Both the position numbers and the translations under genes were made by a program. This document shows positions 2,137 through 58,420 of a stretch of 64,000 nt of DNA, in pieces. Origin of the DNA: a bacterium (GTDB lineage: Bacteria; Bacteroidota; Ignavibacteria; Kapaibacteriales; UBA2268); the NCBI GenBank assembly GCA_037127915.1, contig JBAXXL010000007.1:27636-91635 (forward strand), in the 5' to 3' direction. Below the pieces are notes generated by a model. That model was given only the letters and a program-made list of their open reading frames with translations. It was not told the DNA's origin and searched no databases. Position 1 is the stretch's first letter. Every line of letters begins with the position of its first letter.

Positions 2137-2169
2137 ACTCATCCGCTGACTGCCAGTCATCGGATGAGT
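2137..2169. promoter_or_regulatory. Long palindromic element ACTCATCCGCTGACTGCCAGTCATCGGATGAGT in the 5-prime region of the partial first paralog
   Basis: 16-bp arms with one mismatch. Related elements at 11048..11062, 17667..17699, 22223..22255 and, as a terminator stem, 29169..29195. Confidence 0.5.
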
Positions 2170-4241: not shown

Positions 4242-4462
4242 AAAAACCTTTTCTTTTCTTTTAATGCTAGTGCTAAATTATCATAATTTTATATATTAAA
4301 CAAATATTTCTTTATATCTATTTCGGCTAAAGCCGATTAAAACTTTTTTATCTTTTTCCACGACTTAAAAGTCGTGGCAACTAATTTCTTTCTATCTTTT
4401 TCTTCTTCTACTACTCTCTTATCTTCTTCTATTTAAAAACTTTACAAACTTTACGAACTCAT
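4242..4462 (-). repeat. Conserved inter-paralog spacer, copy 1. Read on the minus strand it is: stop codon, (ACTTTRYRA)n short tandem repeats, TCTTC-rich microsatellite, hairpin CCACGACTTAAAAGTCGTGG (4358..4377), hairpin TCGGCTAAAGCCGA (4323..4336), AT-rich promoter region, then the start of the next paralog
   Basis: Near-identical at the nucleotide level to 6533..6741 and 8791..8986 and largely to 11000..11212. Confidence 0.8.
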
Positions 4463-6532
4463 TTAATCAGTTACACAACGAACAGAGAAACCATATTCCT
4501 TATAATATGCGCCATTGTGAAGAGCCGTAAAATTACAATCCAAGTAAAAGCCATTTGCACTATCGGTATCCTTCTCATCAGAAGTCCACCACATTCCGAG
4601 GTATCCAGCATAGTCGAAAGTTCCATTGATATAACGGAGGCTCCCCGGGATAGCGGAAAAGCCGCTTTCGTTTGTAGCGCCGGTATTAGGAAAATCCCAT
4701 AAACCATCACCTTCGGATTTGGTTCCGGTGCTTTTTAATTTACCACCTCCTTCATCACCTACACATGCATATAATTTAGACCATTCTGCAACGGAGGATA
4801 TATGCCAACCTACTGGTGCTAAACCACGCGAATCATTAACTGCATACCAATTATATAATTTGCCATAGATTTTACCCATAGCAGGATCATTCCTGTAATA
4901 GCACCACGCGCCGGTGGTTAATTTTGACCATTGTGTTGAATCTCTAACCTCAGGTATTGAATCACCGTTACGGTAATGATCAACATCCAAATTACATCCC
5001 ATCCAAATTTGGTCACATATTTGAACATCTCCAATATCGCATCCCAAATACTCATATCCAAGTTTTGTAGTTACTCTTGCCAAGCACTGATTACTTGGTG
5101 TTTTTGGGATTTTCCAATTATAACTTAATCCTGTTGCAGAGTCTGCTATTGTTAGCCAATCCGTACCGTTATTCGTTGAATATTCCAACTTTACTTTTTC
5201 TTCGGGTATTACTCCTTCCCAAGTTATTACAGTGTCGTTTCCAACTGCTAAAACTTCCCCACCGTTCGGTTGAATGAGTTGTAATGTTTGTAATTTTGGT
5301 TTTTTTCCGGGAAATCCTCCGCTAGCAAAATAATTTGCTGTGCATACATCGTTCTCAAAAACAAATTTTGTATAAGTATAACCACTATCCACTGGAATAA
5401 ATCTTATCGTTAAATTTGTGCTTTGACCTGAATTTAAAACAAAGTTATATGGAGTAATAGTAAAAGCCGGATTTGAACTTGTAACGTTATTTATATTATA
5501 ATAAGAATTGACTGCTTTTATGCTGATATTTATATCTCTTGGAACTCCCGGTAAGGCATTAAGTATTTTTACCGATGAAGGAGAAAATTCTAATTTGGCA
5601 ACTGAATTGTTTGGTGATGGGTAGTCGAATCGTGCAATCAGTTTATTTGGTATTAACTTTATATTTACATTCGTAATGCCTGATATACAAGAGGCTTTGC
5701 TTTTCCATTGGATTTGGCAGGGACCGCTACCTTGGGCTTGCGCTTGTATGCGATTCGCTAAATCCTCAGCGGCAATTTTACTTGTGATACCATCGTATAA
5801 AAAACCTCCGGTTGCATCGGCTAATAATTGTAATGATTTCTTTATTCCGTTTGGTTCAGCTTCAGGTCTTGAATAAATTACTGCGTAAAATTGAATATTA
5901 TATTTGGAACAAGTATCTTTACACGCTTGAAGTTCGTTTTCACCTAGAGCAAACCACCAAGCATCGGTATATAGAATTGCCACTCGCTTGTATTGTCCTT
6001 TTTTCGCAATATTTAACAAACCTGCTAATGGATTTAATAAGTGTTCAACAAAATCATTATCACCATTAGCTATAATTGGTAATATTTTTGATAATAACAG
6101 CACCCTATTCGTTGTGAAATCTTGGACAATCAACGCTTGGTCGTTGCAAGTTTGTAAAGCGAATTCTGAAGGCGGCATAGGAATATTTTTACAAAGTTCT
6201 CTGGAAGTCGTTTTACCAAGTTCAACAGGAATTTCACCCGATAAACCTCCCCGCATAGATCCTGACACATCAATACTCATGGCTATTGAAACCTTTAACG
6301 AAGGATTAGGCTCAGGGCAACTCGTATTAGTTACAGTTCTTGACTGCCCATTTTCAGTTATGCTAAAATCAGAATTGGAGAAGTTTATGATTTGATTCCC
6401 AGACCCATCAAAAGCAAAGAAATTTGCTTTGATGGTAGGAAATTCCGAAGCATCAACATTAAATACAGATAAACTCTGGCTATATGCTGTATAGCAGAGA
6501 AAAAATATAATTATGTAAATGATTCTTTTCAT
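4463..6532 (-). CDS. Array paralog 2 (VWA subtype B variant): same architecture, C-terminal FISUMP domain
   Basis: 689-aa ORF. The first 40 aa are nearly identical to paralogs 1 and 3 at the nucleotide level. Middle region IAMSIDVSGSM...KRVAILYTDAWW is a divergent VWA-like domain; the C-terminus ends GFSVRCVTD. Confidence 0.85.
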   Translation of the reverse strand: MKRIIYIIIFFLCYTAYSQSLSVFNVDASEFPTIKANFFAFDGSGNQIINFSNSDFSITENGQSRTVTNTSCPEPNPSLKVSIAMSIDVSGSMRGGLSGEIPVELGKTTSRELCKNIPMPPSEFALQTCNDQALIVQDFTTNRVLLLSKILPIIANGDNDFVEHLLNPLAGLLNIAKKGQYKRVAILYTDAWWFALGENELQACKDTCSKYNIQFYAVIYSRPEAEPNGIKKSLQLLADATGGFLYDGITSKIAAEDLANRIQAQAQGSGPCQIQWKSKASCISGITNVNIKLIPNKLIARFDYPSPNNSVAKLEFSPSSVKILNALPGVPRDINISIKAVNSYYNINNVTSSNPAFTITPYNFVLNSGQSTNLTIRFIPVDSGYTYTKFVFENDVCTANYFASGGFPGKKPKLQTLQLIQPNGGEVLAVGNDTVITWEGVIPEEKVKLEYSTNNGTDWLTIADSATGLSYNWKIPKTPSNQCLARVTTKLGYEYLGCDIGDVQICDQIWMGCNLDVDHYRNGDSIPEVRDSTQWSKLTTGAWCYYRNDPAMGKIYGKLYNWYAVNDSRGLAPVGWHISSVAEWSKLYACVGDEGGGKLKSTGTKSEGDGLWDFPNTGATNESGFSAIPGSLRYINGTFDYAGYLGMWWTSDEKDTDSANGFYLDCNFTALHNGAYYKEYGFSVRCVTD

Positions 6533-6741
6533 AAAACCTTTTCTTTTCTTTTAATGCTAATGCTAAATTATCATAATTTTATATATTAAACAAATATTTC
6601 TTTATATCTATTTCGGCTAAAGCCTATTAAAAACTTTTTTCTATTTTTTCCACGACTTAAAAGTCGTGGCAATTAATTTTTTCTATCTTCTTCTTCTTCT
6701 CTTTATGAACTTTAAAAACTTTATAAACTTTATAAACTAAT
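6533..6741 (-). repeat. Conserved inter-paralog spacer, copy 2 (hairpin CCACGACTTAAAAGTCGTGG at 6650..6669; the second hairpin is disrupted by a point change, AGCCTA)
   Basis: Alignment by eye with 4242..4462. Confidence 0.8.
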
Positions 6742-8790
6742 TTAATCCCTTATACAGCGAACGGCGAAGCCAATTTCTTTTCTATCAATATACTTGTTAA
6801 TATATGAGTAATAATAATCCAGTCCTCTAATCCATGCATATCCGGTATTGTACTCAGTATTGCTCCACCAGTAACCGAGATAAGCCATATTATAGAATAA
6901 CCCATTGTTTCCGCGGTAACCGCCAGGAAGAGCCGAAAATCCAAATGCATTTGTGGCGCCTTCATTAGGACTATGCCATAAACCATCTCCCGCTTCAATT
7001 GTACCGGTACTTTTCAATTTACCGCCGGCTGTAGTTGATCCTCCAAGACAATTTTCTAATTCAGTCCATTCTGCTTCGGTAGGAATATGCCAGCCATAAG
7101 GAGCCAAACCCCTTGGATCGTTCACTGCATACCAATTGTAAAGTTTTCCATAAATTGCACCCAAAGACGTGTCATTATTATAATAACACCATGCACCTGA
7201 TCTTAGATTTGCCCATATTGTTGAATCAGTAACTTCTGGGATTGGTGTGCCATCACGATATTTATCTACATCTAAATTACAACCCATCCAAATTTGGTTA
7301 CATGTTTGGACATCAGGACAGGTAAATTCATAACCTATATTGGCAGTCACTCGTGCCAAGCATTCATTGCTCGGTGTCTTGGGGACACGCCAATTATAAG
7401 CCAATCCGGTTGCATTTTTTGCTACAAGAATCCAATTCAAACCATTATCAATACTATATTCAATATTGACTTTCTCTTCGGGTAATACTCCTTCCCAAGT
7501 TATTACGGTATCGTTTCCGACAGCAAAAAATTCACCACCATTTGGTTGAATGAGTTTTAAAGTCTGTATTTTTGGTTTCTTTCCAGGGAAACCTCCGCTC
7601 GCATAAAAATTGGTTGGGCAAATATTATTTTCAAATGCAAATTTTGCATATGTATAGCCACTGTCCAAAGGGAAATAACTTACTGTCAAATCTTTGCTTT
7701 CACCTGATTTAAGGAAAAAGTTTGTTGGTGTAATAGAATACGCTGTGTTTGTGCTTATTATATTTTGTACATTGAAATCAGCATACTTTGCTGTAACTGT
7801 AATGGTTGTATCTTTTTTTATACCGGGTTTTGCATTATTAAATTTAATAGACGATGGTATTATTTCCAGCTTAGCAACCGTCGAGTTTGGTGATTGATAG
7901 CTTGTGTATGATTTTAAATTATTTGGAATTAGTTTTAATTCTATATTAATTAATTCCGACACACAAGAAACTCCGCTTGTCCATTCTATCTGACATGGTT
8001 CGCCTCCTTGGACTTGCACCTGTATGCGATAAGCAATATCTTTCGCGGCGCTTAAACTCATTATACCATCGTAAAAATATCCGCCAGTGGCTTCGGCAAG
8101 TGATTGTAACGATTTTTTTATACCGTTTGGCTCCGCTTCCTGGTTAGAATAAATAACTGCGTAGAATTGAATACTAAATTTTTTACACGTATCAATACAT
8201 GCTTGGAGTTCACTTTGGTCCATTGCCTTCCACCAAGCATCAGTATATAAAACGGCAATTCGCTTGTTTTTTCCATTTTTTGCGATATTTAGCAAACCAT
8301 TTAATGGATTTAGTAAGTGCTCAACAAAATCATTTTCGCCGGTAGCTACAATTTGCGATATTTTTGATAACAACAATTCCTTGTTTGTTGTGAAATCCTG
8401 AATTATCAATGCTTTGTCGTTACAAGTTTGCAAGGCGAATTCTGATGGCGGCATAGGAACAGTATTACAAAGATCGCCGGCTGTTATTTTTCCGAGCTCA
8501 ACGGCAGTAGTCATAGAACCAGATACATCGATACTCATCGCTATTGAAACCTTTTGCGGCGTAATAGGATTAGGACAAATCACATTTGTAACCGTTCTCA
8601 ATTGGCCATTTTCTGTTATACTAAAATCAGAATTTGTTAGGTTTGCAATAGGCTTTCCTTTGACATCCAAAGCATAAAAATTTGCTTTGATAGTCGGAAA
8701 TGCAGAAGCGTCAACATTAAACAAAGATAAACTTTGGCTATATGCTGTATAACAGAGGAAAAATATTATTATGTAGATGATTCTTTTCAT
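6742..8790 (-). CDS. Array paralog 3 (VWA subtype B variant): same architecture, C-terminal FISUMP domain
   Basis: 682-aa ORF, MKRIIYIIIFFLCYTAYSQSLSLFNVDASAFPTIKANFYALD..., IAMSIDVSGSM, ending GFAVRCIRD. Confidence 0.85.
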   Translation of the reverse strand: MKRIIYIIIFFLCYTAYSQSLSLFNVDASAFPTIKANFYALDVKGKPIANLTNSDFSITENGQLRTVTNVICPNPITPQKVSIAMSIDVSGSMTTAVELGKITAGDLCNTVPMPPSEFALQTCNDKALIIQDFTTNKELLLSKISQIVATGENDFVEHLLNPLNGLLNIAKNGKNKRIAVLYTDAWWKAMDQSELQACIDTCKKFSIQFYAVIYSNQEAEPNGIKKSLQSLAEATGGYFYDGIMSLSAAKDIAYRIQVQVQGGEPCQIEWTSGVSCVSELINIELKLIPNNLKSYTSYQSPNSTVAKLEIIPSSIKFNNAKPGIKKDTTITVTAKYADFNVQNIISTNTAYSITPTNFFLKSGESKDLTVSYFPLDSGYTYAKFAFENNICPTNFYASGGFPGKKPKIQTLKLIQPNGGEFFAVGNDTVITWEGVLPEEKVNIEYSIDNGLNWILVAKNATGLAYNWRVPKTPSNECLARVTANIGYEFTCPDVQTCNQIWMGCNLDVDKYRDGTPIPEVTDSTIWANLRSGAWCYYNNDTSLGAIYGKLYNWYAVNDPRGLAPYGWHIPTEAEWTELENCLGGSTTAGGKLKSTGTIEAGDGLWHSPNEGATNAFGFSALPGGYRGNNGLFYNMAYLGYWWSNTEYNTGYAWIRGLDYYYSYINKYIDRKEIGFAVRCIRD

Positions 8791-8986
8791 AAAAACTTTT
8801 CGTTTCTTTTAATGCTAGTACTAAATTATCATAATTTTATATATTAAACAAATATTTCTTTATATCTATTTCGGCTAAAGCCGATTAAAACTTTCTTTTC
8901 TTTATCCACGACTTAAAAGTCGTGGATATTGATTTCTTTCTATCTTCTTCTTCTCTTTAAAAACTTTATGAACTTTACAAACTGAT
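8791..8986 (-). repeat. Conserved inter-paralog spacer, copy 3 (hairpins at 8871..8884 and 8906..8925)
   Basis: Alignment by eye with 4242..4462. Confidence 0.8.
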
Positions 8987-10999
8987 TTAGTCCACAATAC
9001 AACGAACTGAAAAACCATATTCTTTAAAACCATAAACTCTATAACCATAAGCACTACTGCAGGTTAAATATCTTTGCCATCCATAAGGTTCAGAACTAGA
9101 TGTAGCTGTCCATAAATCAGCGTCATTTCTAACTCCACTAAATCGTCCGTCATTATACCGGAAGCCTCCGGGTAAAATAGATAAACCACTCGAATTTGTT
9201 GCTCCGGTATTTGGACTATTCCATAAGCTAGTACCGGTACTCTTCATTTTGGCACCTGCGACAACCAAGCCACCAAGAAAATTTTCAAGTTTACTCCATT
9301 CTTCATCGCTTGCCAGATGGTATCCATCTGGTGCCAAACCACGGGAATCGTTGAGGGCGTACCAATTATAAAGCTTACCATACACATCACCCATTGCCGG
9401 ATCGTTGTTGTAATAACACCAAGCACCCGTTTTTAGATTTTTCCATTCAGTTGGGTCTTTTACTTCGGGAATTGGATCGCCATTTCTATAAGTATCGACA
9501 TTTAAATTACAACCCATCCACGTTTGATTACCTATTGCAACATCGGGACAAGGTGGTATATAAGGCGAATTTGCGGTTATTCTGGCTAAGCATTGATTAC
9601 TTGGAGTCTTTGGTACCCGCCATAAGTAATTTAGTCCCTTCGATGATTTTGAAAGAAGTATCCAGTCCGCACCATTATTTGTACTGTATTCAAGTCTTAC
9701 ATCTTCCTCCGGCAAAACACCTTCCCAAGATATTAGAGTATCTGATCCAACAGCTAATACTTCACCACCGTTAGGTTGTAGAAGTTTTAAAGTTTGTATT
9801 TTTGGCTTTATACCAGGGAATCCACCGCTCGCATAAAAATAAGTTGGACATTGATTATTTTCAAGTGTGAATTTGCAGTAAGTATAACCGCTATCTGCCG
9901 GAACATAACTTACTATAAGATTAGTACTTTGTCCATTTTCAAGGATAAAGCTTGATGGGGCGATTGTAAATGAAGGACTTGTAGATATAATATTAGTTAT
10001 ATTAAAATCTGAATTTATGGCTTTGACAGTAATTGTCGCGTCTTTTTTTATTCCGGGAATTGCGTTTAAAAATTTTACTGAAGCAGGATTAATTTCCAGA
10101 TTAGCTATTGAATTTACTGGTGGTTGGTAATAGTTAAATGCTGTTAGATTTAATGGTATAAGCTTAAAATTCAGATTAGTCAAACCGGTTTTACAGGATA
10201 CTCCGCTCTTCCATACAATTTGACATGGACTTTCAACTTGGGCGGTCTTTAAAATAACACGGTAACATTGTTCAGCTTCTTCCTTGGTTTTTATATTTTC
10301 GAAATACATACCACCCGTTTGCGATGCAAAATCCTTCATACATTGGGGTGCCGGCATATTTAAAGTAACACAATAAATAGCAATATTGTTAGCCTTAGCC
10401 TCGCTAATTATTTCAGCTGTTTTTGGCTCGGAAGTAGGATCTCCATCAGATAGAAAAACGACAACTCTTTTATGCTTGCCTGTTTTTGCAATTAGAAGCC
10501 CACCACCGACATGGTCTATCATTGCGGCATTGTAGTTTGTACCACCAAAAGTAGTCAAATTATTAATAACAGCAATTAAATTAGGTTTATCTTTAGTAAA
10601 ATCTTGATTAATATAATTATTATCGCTGAAACTTGTTATAGCGCATTCTGAATTATTATCGGGTAGCATATTAATCCATTCAATAGCCGCAGATTTAGCC
10701 ATATCAAGACCAAATCCTTGCATTGAACCGGATATATCGATGACCAATACGCTGGATAATACTTCGGGAATTCTCGGGCTTGAACAAATCACATCTGTAA
10801 TTGTTCTTGCTTGTCCATTTTCCTTCACTTCAAAATCTGAAGGAGTGAGGTTTATAATTTGATTTCCAGTGGCATCCAAAGCATAAAAATTTGCCTTGAT
10901 GGTCGGAAATGCTGACGCATCAACATTAAACATAGATAAACTCTGGCTATATGCTGTATAACCAAATAATAAAAAGAGTATATAAATTGTTTTCTTCAT
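8987..10999 (-). CDS. Array paralog 4 (VWA subtype A): same architecture, C-terminal FISUMP domain
   Basis: 670-aa ORF, MKKTIYILFLLFGYTAYSQ signal peptide, VLVIDISGSM...VVVFLSDGDPTSEP VWA/MIDAS, ending GFSVRCIVD. Confidence 0.85.
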   Translation of the reverse strand: MKKTIYILFLLFGYTAYSQSLSMFNVDASAFPTIKANFYALDATGNQIINLTPSDFEVKENGQARTITDVICSSPRIPEVLSSVLVIDISGSMQGFGLDMAKSAAIEWINMLPDNNSECAITSFSDNNYINQDFTKDKPNLIAVINNLTTFGGTNYNAAMIDHVGGGLLIAKTGKHKRVVVFLSDGDPTSEPKTAEIISEAKANNIAIYCVTLNMPAPQCMKDFASQTGGMYFENIKTKEEAEQCYRVILKTAQVESPCQIVWKSGVSCKTGLTNLNFKLIPLNLTAFNYYQPPVNSIANLEINPASVKFLNAIPGIKKDATITVKAINSDFNITNIISTSPSFTIAPSSFILENGQSTNLIVSYVPADSGYTYCKFTLENNQCPTYFYASGGFPGIKPKIQTLKLLQPNGGEVLAVGSDTLISWEGVLPEEDVRLEYSTNNGADWILLSKSSKGLNYLWRVPKTPSNQCLARITANSPYIPPCPDVAIGNQTWMGCNLNVDTYRNGDPIPEVKDPTEWKNLKTGAWCYYNNDPAMGDVYGKLYNWYALNDSRGLAPDGYHLASDEEWSKLENFLGGLVVAGAKMKSTGTSLWNSPNTGATNSSGLSILPGGFRYNDGRFSGVRNDADLWTATSSSEPYGWQRYLTCSSAYGYRVYGFKEYGFSVRCIVD

Positions 11000-11212
11000 A
11001 AGATTTCTTTCAATTTCTTTTTAACTTATTGCTTATTTTCTTTTTTTACTCATCCGATGAGTTGATATTTCTTTGCTTATTTATTTCGGCTAAAGCCGAT
11101 TAAAACTTTCAATAATTTTCCACGACTTAAAAGTCGTGGCTACTAATAATTTTAAATTTTCTTCTTATCTTCTTATCTTCTTCTCTTTATGAACTTTCCG
11201 AACTTTATGAAC
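11000..11212 (-). repeat. Conserved inter-paralog spacer, copy 4 (hairpins at 11087..11100 and 11120..11139, plus an ACTCATCCGATGAGT palindrome at 11048..11062)
   Basis: Contains all three conserved hairpin/palindrome elements. Confidence 0.8.
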
Positions 11213-13288
11213 TTATTTCATCCTTATGCAACGTACTGAAAATCCATTCTCATAATAATGAGTACTTCTGCCAATAATAGATGCGTCAGTACCTATTCTC
11301 CTATAATATGCGGTTTTGGAACCAAAATCAGTAGATGTCCAAAAGTAGGCATCGACGCCGATGTTTAGAAAATCGCTGACGTGGTACCGGTAACCTCCGG
11401 GAACAGCAGCAAAACCGGTTTCATTTGTTGCACCGTTGTTTGGACTAAACCACAAACCATCACCCGTTTCTATAGTACCCATACTTTTCAATTTTCCTCC
11501 GGCAATATCTTTCCCGCCAATACAGTTTTCTAATTCGGTCCATTCTTCATCGCTCGGTACATACCAGCCTGCAGGAGCTAAACCCCGTGGATCGTTTACT
11601 GCATACCAATTGTATAGTTTTCCGTAAATTTCTCCATTTTTTGGATCATTATTATAATAGCACCAAGCTCCCGTTGTTAAGGCTCGCCATTCTAAAGGGT
11701 CAGAAACTTGAGGAATTGGATCGCCATTGCGGTAATGAGCAACATTAAGATTACAACCCATCCAAAATTGATTACATATTAGCACATCACTGTTATCACA
11801 ACTGATTTCAGTTGTAGCATTAGCAGTAATTCTTGCTAAGCATTGTGTACTTGGTGTTTTCGGTATCCTCCACTTATAAAAAAAATCTGTTCCTGAATCG
11901 GTGATTGTAGTCCATTTCAAACCATTATTAGTGCTATATTCAATTTTCACAGGGTCATCGGGCATAACACCTTCCCAAGTTATTAGAGAATCTGCACCTA
12001 CTGAAAACACTTCACCGCCGTTGGGTTCCATCAAATTTATAGTTTTTGTTTTGGGCTTTTTTCCCTTAAACCCTCCACTTACGTACAATTTCGATAAACA
12101 TTTATCGCTTTCGAATGTTATAACATTAAACTCATAACTGCTGTCTGCTGGAAGATAATAAATCTTTAGATTTCTCCTTTGGCCTTTAGCTAGAAAAAAA
12201 CTCTGAGGAATTACAGAAAAATCAGGATTTGAACAGGTTACGTTAGTTACTGTAAAATCGGTATTATTTGCGAATACCGAAACCGTTGAATCTACTTTGA
12301 TTCCGGGGGTTGGATTTAAAAATACAACAACCGGTGGATTAATTACTAATGCGGCACCGGACCTAATAGGTGCTTCGTATCTAGTTTGAGCTGTTAATGC
12401 ATGCTTACTATCAGTAATTTCGACATTTGTCCAATCTCCTTTACAAAATATTCCACTTTCCCACTCGATTTCACAGAATTTGCCATCTTGAATAATGGTT
12501 TGTAAACGTTTTGCTAAAGCCGTTGCGGCTCCTGCACTCGTAATACCGTCAAATAATAACCCGCCTGTTGCATCGGCTAATGTTTGCAACGATCTTTTTA
12601 TTCCATTTTTATCAGTTTCGGGACTAGAATAAACTACTGCATAAAACTTAATCTTATTAGCTACACAAATATCTTTACAGGTTTCAATCTCACTTTGAGT
12701 TAAGCCAATCCACCCGGCATCGGTGAATAGTACTACATTATGTGTGTAGATTCCTCTTTTTATGATATTTAACAATCCGGTTAAGGGGTTTAGCAGTTGT
12801 TCAACAAAATCATTTTCATTAGAAGTACTAATTGTTTCAATTGCTGAAAGATATTTTGCATTATCAGTAGTGAAATCTTGAACTATCAAAGCTTTTGAAT
12901 TACAAATTTGTAATGCAAATTCGGAAGGCGGCATGATTATGCTGTTAGCTAGTTCTTTTGCTGTGATTTTTGCTAGATCAAAAGGTATATAACCATGCTC
13001 ATCATAAGACATGGAACTTGAAACATCGATACTTATTGCGACCGATACAGCATTAAGAGTATTTTCATTCGAACAATCTACATTAGTAGGCGTCCTAGGG
13101 AATCCGTTTTCGGTTATTTTGAAATCACTAACTGAAAAATTTGTTATAGGATCGCCATTAGAATCAAAGGCAATAAAATTAGCTTTAATTGTCGGAAATG
13201 CCGAAGCATCAACATTAAATACTGATAAACTCTGGCTATATGCTGTATAACCAAATACAAAAAAAAGTATGTAAATCAATTTTCTCAT
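11213..13288 (-). CDS. Array paralog 5 (VWA subtype B variant): same architecture, C-terminal FISUMP domain. The likely true start is the internal Met (MRKLIYILFFVFGYTAYSQ) at 13288, not the 13351 start of the longest ORF
   Basis: The ORF track gives 11213..13351 (712 aa), but the first 21 residues (MFKLKKNDNLVIGKKRNWKSS) precede the conserved signal peptide shared by all paralogs. The ATG at 13286-13288 restores the family N-terminus. VAISIDVSSSM MIDAS-like; ends GFSVRCIRMK. Confidence 0.8.
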   Translation of the reverse strand: MRKLIYILFFVFGYTAYSQSLSVFNVDASAFPTIKANFIAFDSNGDPITNFSVSDFKITENGFPRTPTNVDCSNENTLNAVSVAISIDVSSSMSYDEHGYIPFDLAKITAKELANSIIMPPSEFALQICNSKALIVQDFTTDNAKYLSAIETISTSNENDFVEQLLNPLTGLLNIIKRGIYTHNVVLFTDAGWIGLTQSEIETCKDICVANKIKFYAVVYSSPETDKNGIKRSLQTLADATGGLLFDGITSAGAATALAKRLQTIIQDGKFCEIEWESGIFCKGDWTNVEITDSKHALTAQTRYEAPIRSGAALVINPPVVVFLNPTPGIKVDSTVSVFANNTDFTVTNVTCSNPDFSVIPQSFFLAKGQRRNLKIYYLPADSSYEFNVITFESDKCLSKLYVSGGFKGKKPKTKTINLMEPNGGEVFSVGADSLITWEGVMPDDPVKIEYSTNNGLKWTTITDSGTDFFYKWRIPKTPSTQCLARITANATTEISCDNSDVLICNQFWMGCNLNVAHYRNGDPIPQVSDPLEWRALTTGAWCYYNNDPKNGEIYGKLYNWYAVNDPRGLAPAGWYVPSDEEWTELENCIGGKDIAGGKLKSMGTIETGDGLWFSPNNGATNETGFAAVPGGYRYHVSDFLNIGVDAYFWTSTDFGSKTAYYRRIGTDASIIGRSTHYYENGFSVRCIRMK

Positions 13289-13422
13289 AGAACTTTTCCA
13301 ATTTCTTTTTTTTCCTATAACTAAATTATCATTTTTTTTTAGTTTAAACAAATATTATTTCTAATTTCTTTTTCTTCCTACTTTATGAACTTTACGAACC
13401 TGATAAACTTTATAAACTATGT

Positions 13423-15491: not shown

Positions 15492-15527
15492 TTCTTCTCT
15501 TCTTCTCTTCTTCTCTTCTTCTCTTCA
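15492..15527. repeat. Microsatellite (TTCTTCTC) about 4.5 units, immediately followed by (AACTTTATGA)-type 9-10 bp tandem repeats to 15575
   Basis: Direct reading: ttcttctcttcttctcttcttctcttcttctcttc then aactttatgaactttatgaactttacaaactctataaac. Confidence 0.8.
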
Positions 15528-15578
15528 TCTTTACTAACTTTATGAACTTTATGAACTTTACAAACTCTATAAACTCAT

Positions 15579-17666: not shown

Positions 17667-17699
17667 ACTCATCGGATGACTCGAAGTCATCGGATGAGT
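17667..17699. promoter_or_regulatory. Palindromic element ACTCATCGGATGACT-cga-AGTCATCGGATGAGT upstream of paralog 7
   Basis: 15-bp arms, one mismatch; 55-87 nt upstream of the 17612 start codon. Confidence 0.5.
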
Positions 17700-58020: not shown

Positions 58021-58420
58021 GGATGAAGACGGATGTCATTACCGCGGAAGCGGTAATCCATCTTCTTGAATAGCCACGACCTCCGGTAGAGACGCGATTT
58101 ATCGCGTCTAATGTGCCGAAATTGGAGACGCGATAAATCGCTTCTCTACAATCCAACGCACTTTTTTTCCCGTAATTCGTTATTGATAACGCGCCCGGCC
58201 AAGGCAAAAAAATGACCTCCGGCGGGGAGGTCAGAATTTTCTATTACCATCATCCTGTAAATCCTCTAATCCTGTATATCCAGATTCAGACAAGAAGGCG
58301 GACAGGTCACGACCTATCCCTACGGTTAAAAATTCTCTGCGTCTTCGCGTCTTTGCGGTGAATTCTTCTTCCGTGCTACGTCTTGTTCTCCTATACCCCA
58401 AAACCCTACACCCCAAACCC
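58021..58420. ncRNA. GC-rich, hairpin-dense intergenic block; candidate structured RNA or regulatory region, class undetermined
   Basis: Roughly 50 percent GC against a background near 33 percent. It contains ATTACCGC-GGAA-GCGGTAAT (8-bp stem, GNRA-type loop), AGACGCGAT-TT-ATCGCGTCT, the related GAGACGCGATAAATCGCTTCTC, and GACCTCC-GGCGG-GGAGGTC. It lies between the ends of convergent genes and no ORF of significance covers it. Confidence 0.3.

Follow-up and report, generated by a model that had tools for sequence, protein, structure and literature searches.

Hairpins between VWA/FISUMP paralogs of a Kapaibacteriales bacterium are half-copies of a dispersed palindromic repeat that resembles REP elements

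The DNA considered here (the window) is a stretch of 64,000 nucleotides (nt) from a bacterium of the Ignavibacteria (Kapaibacteriales; assembly GCA_037127915.1, contig JBAXXL010000007.1, positions 27,636 to 91,635). Its minus strand carries a tandem array of seven paralogous genes, P7 to P1, whose products have 670-690 amino acids each and the domains VWA and Fib_succ_major (FISUMP). The spacers of interest lie at the four junctions between P5 and P1 (P2>P1 denotes the spacer between P2 and P1), and each contains a large hairpin, H1, and a small one, H2. These hairpins are copies of a dispersed repeat, placed between a stop codon and a conserved promoter-like block. Together H1 and H2 are one half of a palindromic repeat that is found in many genomes, and not a module private to the array. 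Judged from structural features of the sequence, the repeat appears to be a new family of the kind known as repetitive extragenic palindromic (REP) elements and their inverted doublets (REPINs). By analogy with known REPs, it is fairly probable that a REP-type half-element is carried here in the repeat unit of the paralogs and gives each transcript an RNA hairpin at its 3' end.

The four spacers share one layout. On the coding strand each runs from the stop codon TAA through tandem 9-mers, a polypurine (GAAGA)n tract, H1 and an A-rich linker ending AAAGTTTTAA to H2. In three of the four, H2 is followed by a conserved block, AAATATTTGTTTAATA...TGATAATTTAG, an A-rich leader and the ATG of the next gene; in P5>P4 a palindrome, CTCATCCGATGAG (11049-11061), stands in place of the block. 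An alignment of the four spacers has 269 columns and a mean column identity of 83%. A first-pass annotation, made from the sequence alone, had described this shared layout, and all the elements it named are present where it placed them; chance does not account for any of the motifs. The features are the following.

4242..4462, minus strand: spacer P2>P1, full layout (9-mers, polypurine microsatellite, H1, H2, promoter-like block, A-rich leader)
6533..6741, minus strand: spacer P3>P2, layout as P2>P1, with one stem-breaking mismatch in H2
8791..8986, minus strand: spacer P4>P3, layout as P2>P1, with the H1 stem at 11 bp via two-sided changes (ATAT...ATA)
11000..11212, minus strand: spacer P5>P4, 9-mers, microsatellite, H1 (GTAG foot) and H2
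4358..4377, minus strand: H1, the large hairpin; foot GTTG, then CCACGACT-TTTA-AGTCGTGG on the coding strand
6650-6669 (foot ATTG), 8906-8925 (foot ATAT) and 11120-11139 (foot GTAG), minus strand: identical copies of H1
4323..4336, minus strand: H2, the small hairpin TCGGC-TTTA-GCCGA; copies at 6613-6626 (imperfect), 8871-8884 and 11086-11099
4432..4459, minus strand: tandem 9-mers (AGTTYRTAA)n, starting directly after the stop codon, their TAAs in frame with it
6701-6738, 8955-8983, 11185-11214, 13380-13418 and 15536-15575, minus strand: further 9-mer arrays
4380..4431, minus strand: imperfect polypurine (GAAGA/GAAGAGAA)n microsatellite, as read on the coding strand
6681-6700, 8937-8954, 11160-11187 and 15492-15531, minus strand: further polypurine microsatellites
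4266..4309, minus strand: promoter-like block AAATATTTGTTTAATA-N-TGATAATTTAG, conserved, downstream of H2
6556-6599, 8814-8857 and about 13300-13345 (upstream of P5), minus strand: further promoter-like blocks
4241-4120 (P1), 6532-6410 (P2) and 8790-8670 (P3), minus strand: homogenised first ~40 codons, continuous with the spacer

H1 (CCACGACTTAAAAGTCGTGG on the plus strand) occurs exactly at 4358, 6650, 8906 and 11120, with a shuffle expectation of 0. The hairpin that the annotation had drawn with an AAAA loop is thus present and exact in all four spacers, but it is properly an 8-bp stem beginning CCAC with a 4-nt loop, lengthened to 11 bp in P4>P3. H2 (TTCGGCTAAAGCCGA) is exact at 4322, 8870 and 11085, where 0.09 copies are expected by chance; it had been credited to every spacer, and the copy at 6612 has a single mismatch that breaks one pair. 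The predicted folds are obtained for both hairpins (z-scores -2.6 to -5.3). Hairpins with TTTA or TAAA loops are intergenic in all 8 cases in the window, against 0.3 expected. The coding strand 3' of H1 and of H2 is A-rich with no T-run, so that the two are not canonical terminators, as had been stated.

The repeat is widespread. When one genome per GTDB species was scanned for the exact H1 20-mer, it was detected in at least 116 stretches, mostly metagenome-assembled genomes (MAGs) of Ignavibacteria. Other hosts among the matches listed include Dysgonomonas and other Bacteroidales, Chitinophagaceae (Parafilimonas), Kapaibacterium, Melioribacter and Zixibacteria, and several of the genomes listed have 5-10 H1-bearing contigs, with a maximum of 10 in one MAG. 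Many of the listed matches lie at true contig ends, which marks H1 as an assembly-breaking repeat; repeats of this type break short-read assemblies. All listed copies outside Micrarchaeota are intergenic, and the one copy internal to an open reading frame (ORF) is in Micrarchaeota contigs. With respect to flanking genes, the listed copies are distributed as 25 (++) and 21 (--) between co-directional genes, a nearly random split, with 13 at convergent and 6 at divergent sites; the family is therefore neutral in orientation yet biased to 3' ends, as REPs are. In the window genome, as covered by the 64 kb and a second array from the same sample (locus L004), the 4 + 3 copies of H1 are all in arrays. 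In Micrarchaeota contigs (loci L010, L042, L066, L084, L091, L094 and L121) the 20-mer is flanked by other conserved sequence, AAGAATA-H1-ATGAATTGC..., and probably represents a conserved feature with no relation to the repeat.

The complete element is about 130 bp long and has four hairpins, of which the window holds only the left pair. The left half consists of a foot RTWG, the large hairpin CCACGACT-TTTA-AGTCGTGG and, ~20 nt further, a small hairpin GGC-TTTA-GCC, to which H2 of the window corresponds. The right half follows after about 15-20 nt and mirrors the left: GGC-TAAA-GCC, ~20 nt, CCACnnnn-TAAA-nnnnGTGG and a complementary foot, so that the ends read ATTG...CAAT or ATAG...CTAT. Among the matches listed, 101 of 118 copies of H1 have a foot of the form [AG]T[AT]G (ATTG 56, ATAG 34, GTTG 8, GTAG 3). 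Of 42 full elements among these matches, 35 have left and right feet that complement each other and 38 lack a target-site duplication. The same matches include 105 scorable copies, of which 25 have four perfect hairpins and 27 have H1 and H2 only, as in the window.

The stems of the hairpins are under selection. Covariation of the large hairpin was scored in an alignment anchored on the right foot alone, so that the 5' arm was unselected for pairing. The stem pairs in 91.7% of cells, compared with 72.7% in shuffles and 29-36% in slid registers, and cells with a double change number 45 against 10.9 in shuffles (0 of 500 shuffles as high). Covariation in homologous loci had been proposed as a check on the hairpins, and across the family the large stem shows it. 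The small hairpins swap stems (GGC/GCC, GAC/GTC, GGA/TCC, CCC/GGG) with TTTA/TAAA loops kept; that list was selected by pairing and is descriptive. Stem changes seen in the array copies also preserve or extend the pairing. For example, L004 includes variants that retain it, one of them through a G-T pair that is valid solely on the coding strand.

The features of the family are largely those of the REP, BIME (bacterial interspersed mosaic element) and REPIN sequences of E. coli and Pseudomonas. H1 is a GC-based stem-loop of 20 nt, preceded on its 5' side by a conserved tetranucleotide foot; the family is extragenic, biased to gene 3' ends and present in many copies per genome; and it forms inverted doublets with a short spacer, without target-site duplication, with covarying stems and with frequent singlets. 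On five structural features H1 and H2 would constitute a new, BIME-like sequence family, with foot RTWG and no REP-associated tyrosine transposase (RAYT) seen in the loci read. It differs from the known elements in its foot (ATTG/ATAG, against GT[AG]G), in the additional small GGC-TTTA-GCC hairpin of each half, which brings the total to four, and in the presence of an identical 20-mer across Bacteroidota classes. The CGTC- and GTAG-tagged families of Di Nocera 2013 were rejected as a match, since H1 has no CGTC tag and GTAG only rarely.

The nearest described relatives are in the same class of organisms. The REPs of Ignavibacterium album that lie beside the RAYT AFH48914.1 (TnpA-Y1 subclass 2.7) have the form GTAG-GACAGAC-TTTA-GTCTGTC, with an inner stem that covaries and loops TTTA or TTCA (Quentin et al. 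2018, PMC6006769, Table S1). They share with H1 a 4-nt foot, a stem of 7-8 bp with a fixed outer and a covarying inner part, and the TTTA/TTCA loop. The stems differ (CCACGACT in H1, GACAGAC in I. album), as do the feet, and neither the four-hairpin composite nor the wide distribution of the H1 family is described for the I. album elements. The window also contains a canonical REP doublet at 58086-58149, between convergent prmA and PTS EIIA genes, with the structure GTAG-AGACGCGA-TTTA-TCGCGTCT, 16 nt, AGACGCGA-TAAA-TCGCTTCT-CTAC. This doublet is of exactly the I. album type. Just upstream of it, at about 58061-58075, 'ATAGCCACGACC' resembles a truncated arm of the H1/H4 type.

Several other classes of repeat were compared. 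Miniature inverted-repeat transposable elements (MITEs) and modular repeats such as Correia/NEMIS, BOX and RUP are likewise small, non-coding, intergenic and modular, with terminal inverted repeats; they may be co-transcribed and affect mRNA stability. The ends of the H1 family differ from theirs in being local hairpins whose inner stems covary independently, and a target-site duplication is lacking in 38 of 42 full elements. A MITE was rejected because, although inverted ends are present, there is no consistent target-site duplication. An integron cassette array (attC) was rejected because the genes are paralogs of one family with no integrase among the neighbours, and integrons and CRISPR were both set aside on gene content and spacing. 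A phage origin of H1 was rejected for want of any match in 2.9 million viral contigs, from which both H1 and the long palindrome described below are absent. Rfam 15 gave no relevant match at E <= 1 for window positions 2000-22400 and eight loci with full elements.

Conservation of the hairpins has two components. The segment from H1 to H2 is 78-91% identical among paralog junctions, and the first ~150 nt of each gene are 80-90% identical; over the array as a whole the paralogs share 58-71% of nucleotides and 45-64% of amino acids. Among P1-P3 identity reaches 88-93% between H1 and about codon 40, and extends to synonymous sites; over the remainder of the genes it is 60-70%. This block is a gene-conversion tract and shows recombination acting at the locus, where the first-pass annotation had suggested that the hairpins may be recombination substrates. 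Conversion accounts for part of the conservation of the spacers, not for all of it. The second component is seen in L006, a syntenic orthologous array that shares TatC, SPOR and 2-Hacid_dh neighbours and whose proteins are 71-73% identical to those of the window. L006 retains the spacer layout: H1 is identical at 20 of 20 positions and H2 nearly so, and the linker between the hairpins drifts. Conservation of the hairpins in an orthologous array, at ~72% protein identity, had been named as a check, and the result is positive. Conversion within one genome cannot explain this conservation between species. Across ten array copies the linker between the hairpins is likewise variable. L004, the second array, has the same sample and coverage as the window and probably comes from the same organism; it adds three hairpin copies with the same spacer layout.

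The conserved block downstream of H2 is called promoter-like from its conservation and position; it precedes most of the paralogs in L004 as well. The strict Bacteroidetes promoter consensus TTTG-N17-21-TAnnTTTG (-33/-7) shows no enrichment in the window, with 5 matches where 4.1 would be expected, and for this reason the block is given no stronger name.

A history consistent with these data would begin with a single half-copy that joined the intergenic spacer of a VWA/FISUMP gene unit that was duplicated in tandem. The half-copy would then have propagated with the gene unit, and both gene conversion and constraint on the hairpins would have helped to keep it uniform. Separate from it, the polypurine microsatellite and the 9-mer array would each be a slippage-prone repeat. 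In the present array each paralog mRNA would carry the hairpins at its 3' end, ahead of the promoter-like block of the next gene, and there H1 and H2 could form a barrier to 3'-to-5' exonucleases, a partial attenuator independent of a U-tract, or both. Each paralog would in this way have its own stable transcript end, insulated from the promoter that follows, and the nearly identical spacers could provide homology for unequal exchange, expansion, contraction and conversion of the array. In E. coli operons REPs protect upstream mRNA from 3' exonucleases, take part in Rho-linked attenuation and bind proteins. By analogy with these enterobacterial REPs, a role as a 3'-end RNA hairpin, either decay barrier or attenuator, between separately promoted paralogs is likely. 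The first-pass annotation suggested roles in mRNA stability or processing, in protein binding and in recombination; the classic proposals for REPs are the same, and the suggestions are reasonable but generic. The interpretation given in the annotation is partly supported: the conserved spacer module is real, and the key fact is that it is assembled from dispersed repeat families of known kind, since H1 with H2 and the 9-mers are dispersed repeats and not the array's own.

A number of observations weigh against a REP-type element that serves the paralogs as a dedicated RNA signal. The H1 family is indifferent to the direction of transcription, which suits a DNA-level or selfish element better, and the RNA-level role is drawn purely from analogy. 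The hairpins are not essential: P6>P5 and P7>P6 work without them, and a more distant array, L008, has none of the spacer motifs. No promoter-like block follows the hairpins of L006. As for the assignment to the REP class, the foot is mostly ATTG or ATAG in place of the canonical GT[AG]G, and an exact 20-mer common to several Bacteroidota classes is unusual for vertically inherited REPINs. No RAYT (Y1 transposase) was found by a search for the HUH...Y motif among the window ORFs or in ~1.5 Mb of examined loci, nor by Pfam among the window ORFs and the ORFs beside REP clusters in loci L124 and L103. An ORF between two H1 copies in locus L037 is not RAYT-like, as judged by its translation.

The repeat could also be an inert passenger, a dead REPIN- or MITE-like remnant of the ancestral spacer that has been kept uniform by duplication and conversion only and has no role for the genes. 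The conversion tract of P1-P3 reaches from H1 to codon 40 and would carry such a remnant along, hairpins are missing from two spacers of the array and from L008, half-elements are a common decay state of the family, and the family as a whole is neutral in orientation. A passenger would not be expected to keep H1 at 20 of 20 positions and H2 nearly identical in L006, where the proteins have diverged to 71-73% and the linker varies among ten copies, nor to change its stems only in ways that keep or lengthen pairing. We regard this explanation as unlikely, though it deserves to be taken seriously.

A DNA-level site is improbable. Here the hairpins, extruded as cruciforms or in single-stranded form, would be bound or cut by a RAYT-like or other host protein and would drive unequal exchange and conversion, by which the paralog array grows, shrinks and diversifies; the BIMEs of E. 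coli are bound by gyrase and IHF. The orthologous loci do differ in paralog number (7 against 3), the homogenised tract is centred on the spacer, and matched feet with inverted doublets are what the substrate of a sequence-specific DNA enzyme would have. A unit of the family has also been amplified in tandem, with period 68, in locus L124. Any 200-bp repeat, however, would serve homologous recombination with or without a hairpin, the surroundings of the arrays showed no gene for a RAYT or a recombinase, and what the arrays contain are half-elements, a form regarded in REPIN biology as immobile. The L124 array (~1760-2060, Ignavibacteria bacterium RIFOXYC2_FULL_35_21) consists of H1 with a GGA-TTTA-TCC hairpin between nosD and nosL, and indicates that a REP unit can be amplified locally within an operon.

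Least probable, and indeed very improbable, are unconventional intrinsic terminators, in which H1, H2 or both would halt RNA polymerase without a U-tract (I-shaped) after each paralog: like Rho-independent terminators they are stable GC-rich hairpins soon after a stop codon and before the next promoter-like block, and two H1 copies score as terminator-like on the antisense (plus) strand owing to the polypyrimidine tract, but the coding strand after them is A-rich, the element is conserved across genomes in both orientations and between operon genes (e.g., nosD-nosL), and the lineage has canonical terminators with a hairpin and T-run, after fusA in L004 and in L008. A canonical terminator was rejected, the U-tract being absent from the coding strand and the scan flagging H1 solely on the antisense.

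The 9-mers are a second family dispersed in Bacteroidota, and their arrays typically sit directly against stop codons. In the window they have period 9 and 3-4 copies per array, with 16 double-unit matches against 0.02 expected. The first-pass annotation placed them, with the microsatellite, in the first four spacers, where both are found; they also occur in P6>P5 and P7>P6, which lack the hairpins. A scan of metagenomes with the pattern (TAAAGTTYR)2-TAAAG detected arrays in at least 120 stretches of 25-56% GC, three of them beside FISUMP genes among the matches listed. Some of these contigs encode proteins assigned to Ignavibacteriota, Bacteroidales MAGs and Butyricimonas/Odoribacter. Of the 53 listed arrays that have an ORF upstream in the same orientation, 33 start no more than 15 nt from its stop codon, and in 7 of these the first TAA is itself the stop; in the opposite orientation, 6 of 52 listed arrays lie within 15 nt of a stop. 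This bias is partly built in, as an ORF that enters a TAA-rich array tends to end there. No 9-mer arrays were found in 0.86 Mb of H1-bearing genome loci, so that two independent repeat families meet in the present array.

From their sequence the 9-mer arrays read as a slippage-prone, possibly mobile minisatellite. In several genomes forward and inverted arrays flank a hairpin or a conserved GC-rich core. For example, loci L191 (3935-4090), L230, L232 and L216 contain a MITE-like element in which inverted (AAAGTTYAT)n ends surround a conserved, structured, GC-rich core of 73 nt. In L191, a Butyricimonas/Odoribacter contig, the series array-core-inverted array lies between two cob genes and starts exactly at the stop of a cob-operon gene. 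In L200 (1690-6040; contig FLOH01000029.1, 594 kb, 31% GC) most of the spacers read have a forward array, a small hairpin and an inverted array, and the operon is one of ribosomal-protein genes (S9, L13, L17, RpoA, S4, S11, S13, IF1). Within the loci L126-L245 the 9-mer arrays often run straight into a second, different short tandem repeat, such as (TAGTGAT)n, (TTATTCAG)n, (AATGAGTA)n or (CATTG..)n, and this pairing parallels that of 9-mers and (GAAGA)n in the window. One might suppose that the REP half-element acts together with the 9-mer arrays as a 3'-end module common to Bacteroidota, a signal for transcript end or decay, or that the 9-mers are the ends of mobile elements that insert at stop codons; we think this rather doubtful. 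If true, such a module or such elements would be previously undescribed.

The microsatellites are polypyrimidine on the plus strand and imperfect, with periods 3, 5 and 8, and their length varies from junction to junction. Length polymorphism among reads or strains had been proposed as a check; none was seen among three independent assemblies, which include assemblies from other samples and are 100% identical.

With the repeat identified, the locus falls in a recognisable class, REP-type palindromes within the repeat unit of a surface-protein paralog array, and the class predicts mRNA 3' ends at H1, association with a RAYT, and conversion tracts. To our knowledge REP/REPIN biology has been worked out almost wholly in Proteobacteria. 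The four-hairpin family, whose 20-mer core is identical in Ignavibacteria, Bacteroidales, Chitinophagales and Zixibacteria, would carry this biology into another phylum, and the 9-mer minisatellite at stop codons would contribute further; both the H1 family and the 9-mers bear on whether such repeats are inherited vertically or move between lineages. No paper containing the exact H1 or 9-mer sequence was found by full-text literature search; the wide, sequence-identical distribution of the four-hairpin element and the stop-codon 9-mer arrays across Bacteroidota were not met with in the literature covered, and merit a dedicated survey.

A second palindrome, ACTCATCCGATGACT-NNN-AGTCATCGGATGAGT followed by an A-run, is also repeated in the window (2138-2168, 17668-17698 and 11049-11061). 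Five copies are present in L004, and others in L006 (5490-5702 and 12310-12336). It substitutes for H1 and H2 in other spacers and also occurs upstream of the promoter-like block in a divergent intergenic region. It was not found in viral contigs.

The closest named homologues of the window proteins are from MAGs of Ignavibacteria, Kapabacteria and Bacteroidota. On the minus strand the array is preceded by a VWA protein of 1476 amino acids linked to the type IX secretion system (T9SS) and followed by a further T9SS cargo gene; the neighbours include T9SS cargo, TatC, SPOR and a methyltransferase, and an integrase is absent among them. The repeats of the array confuse gene-start calling. For P5 the listed ORF begins with TTG at 13351, and the ATG at 13288 (MRKLIYI...) agrees with the other paralogs. 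The public call for P4, at 10933, is 22 codons short of the conserved ATG at 10999, and that for the T9SS gene downstream of the array begins within the palindrome, at 2160.

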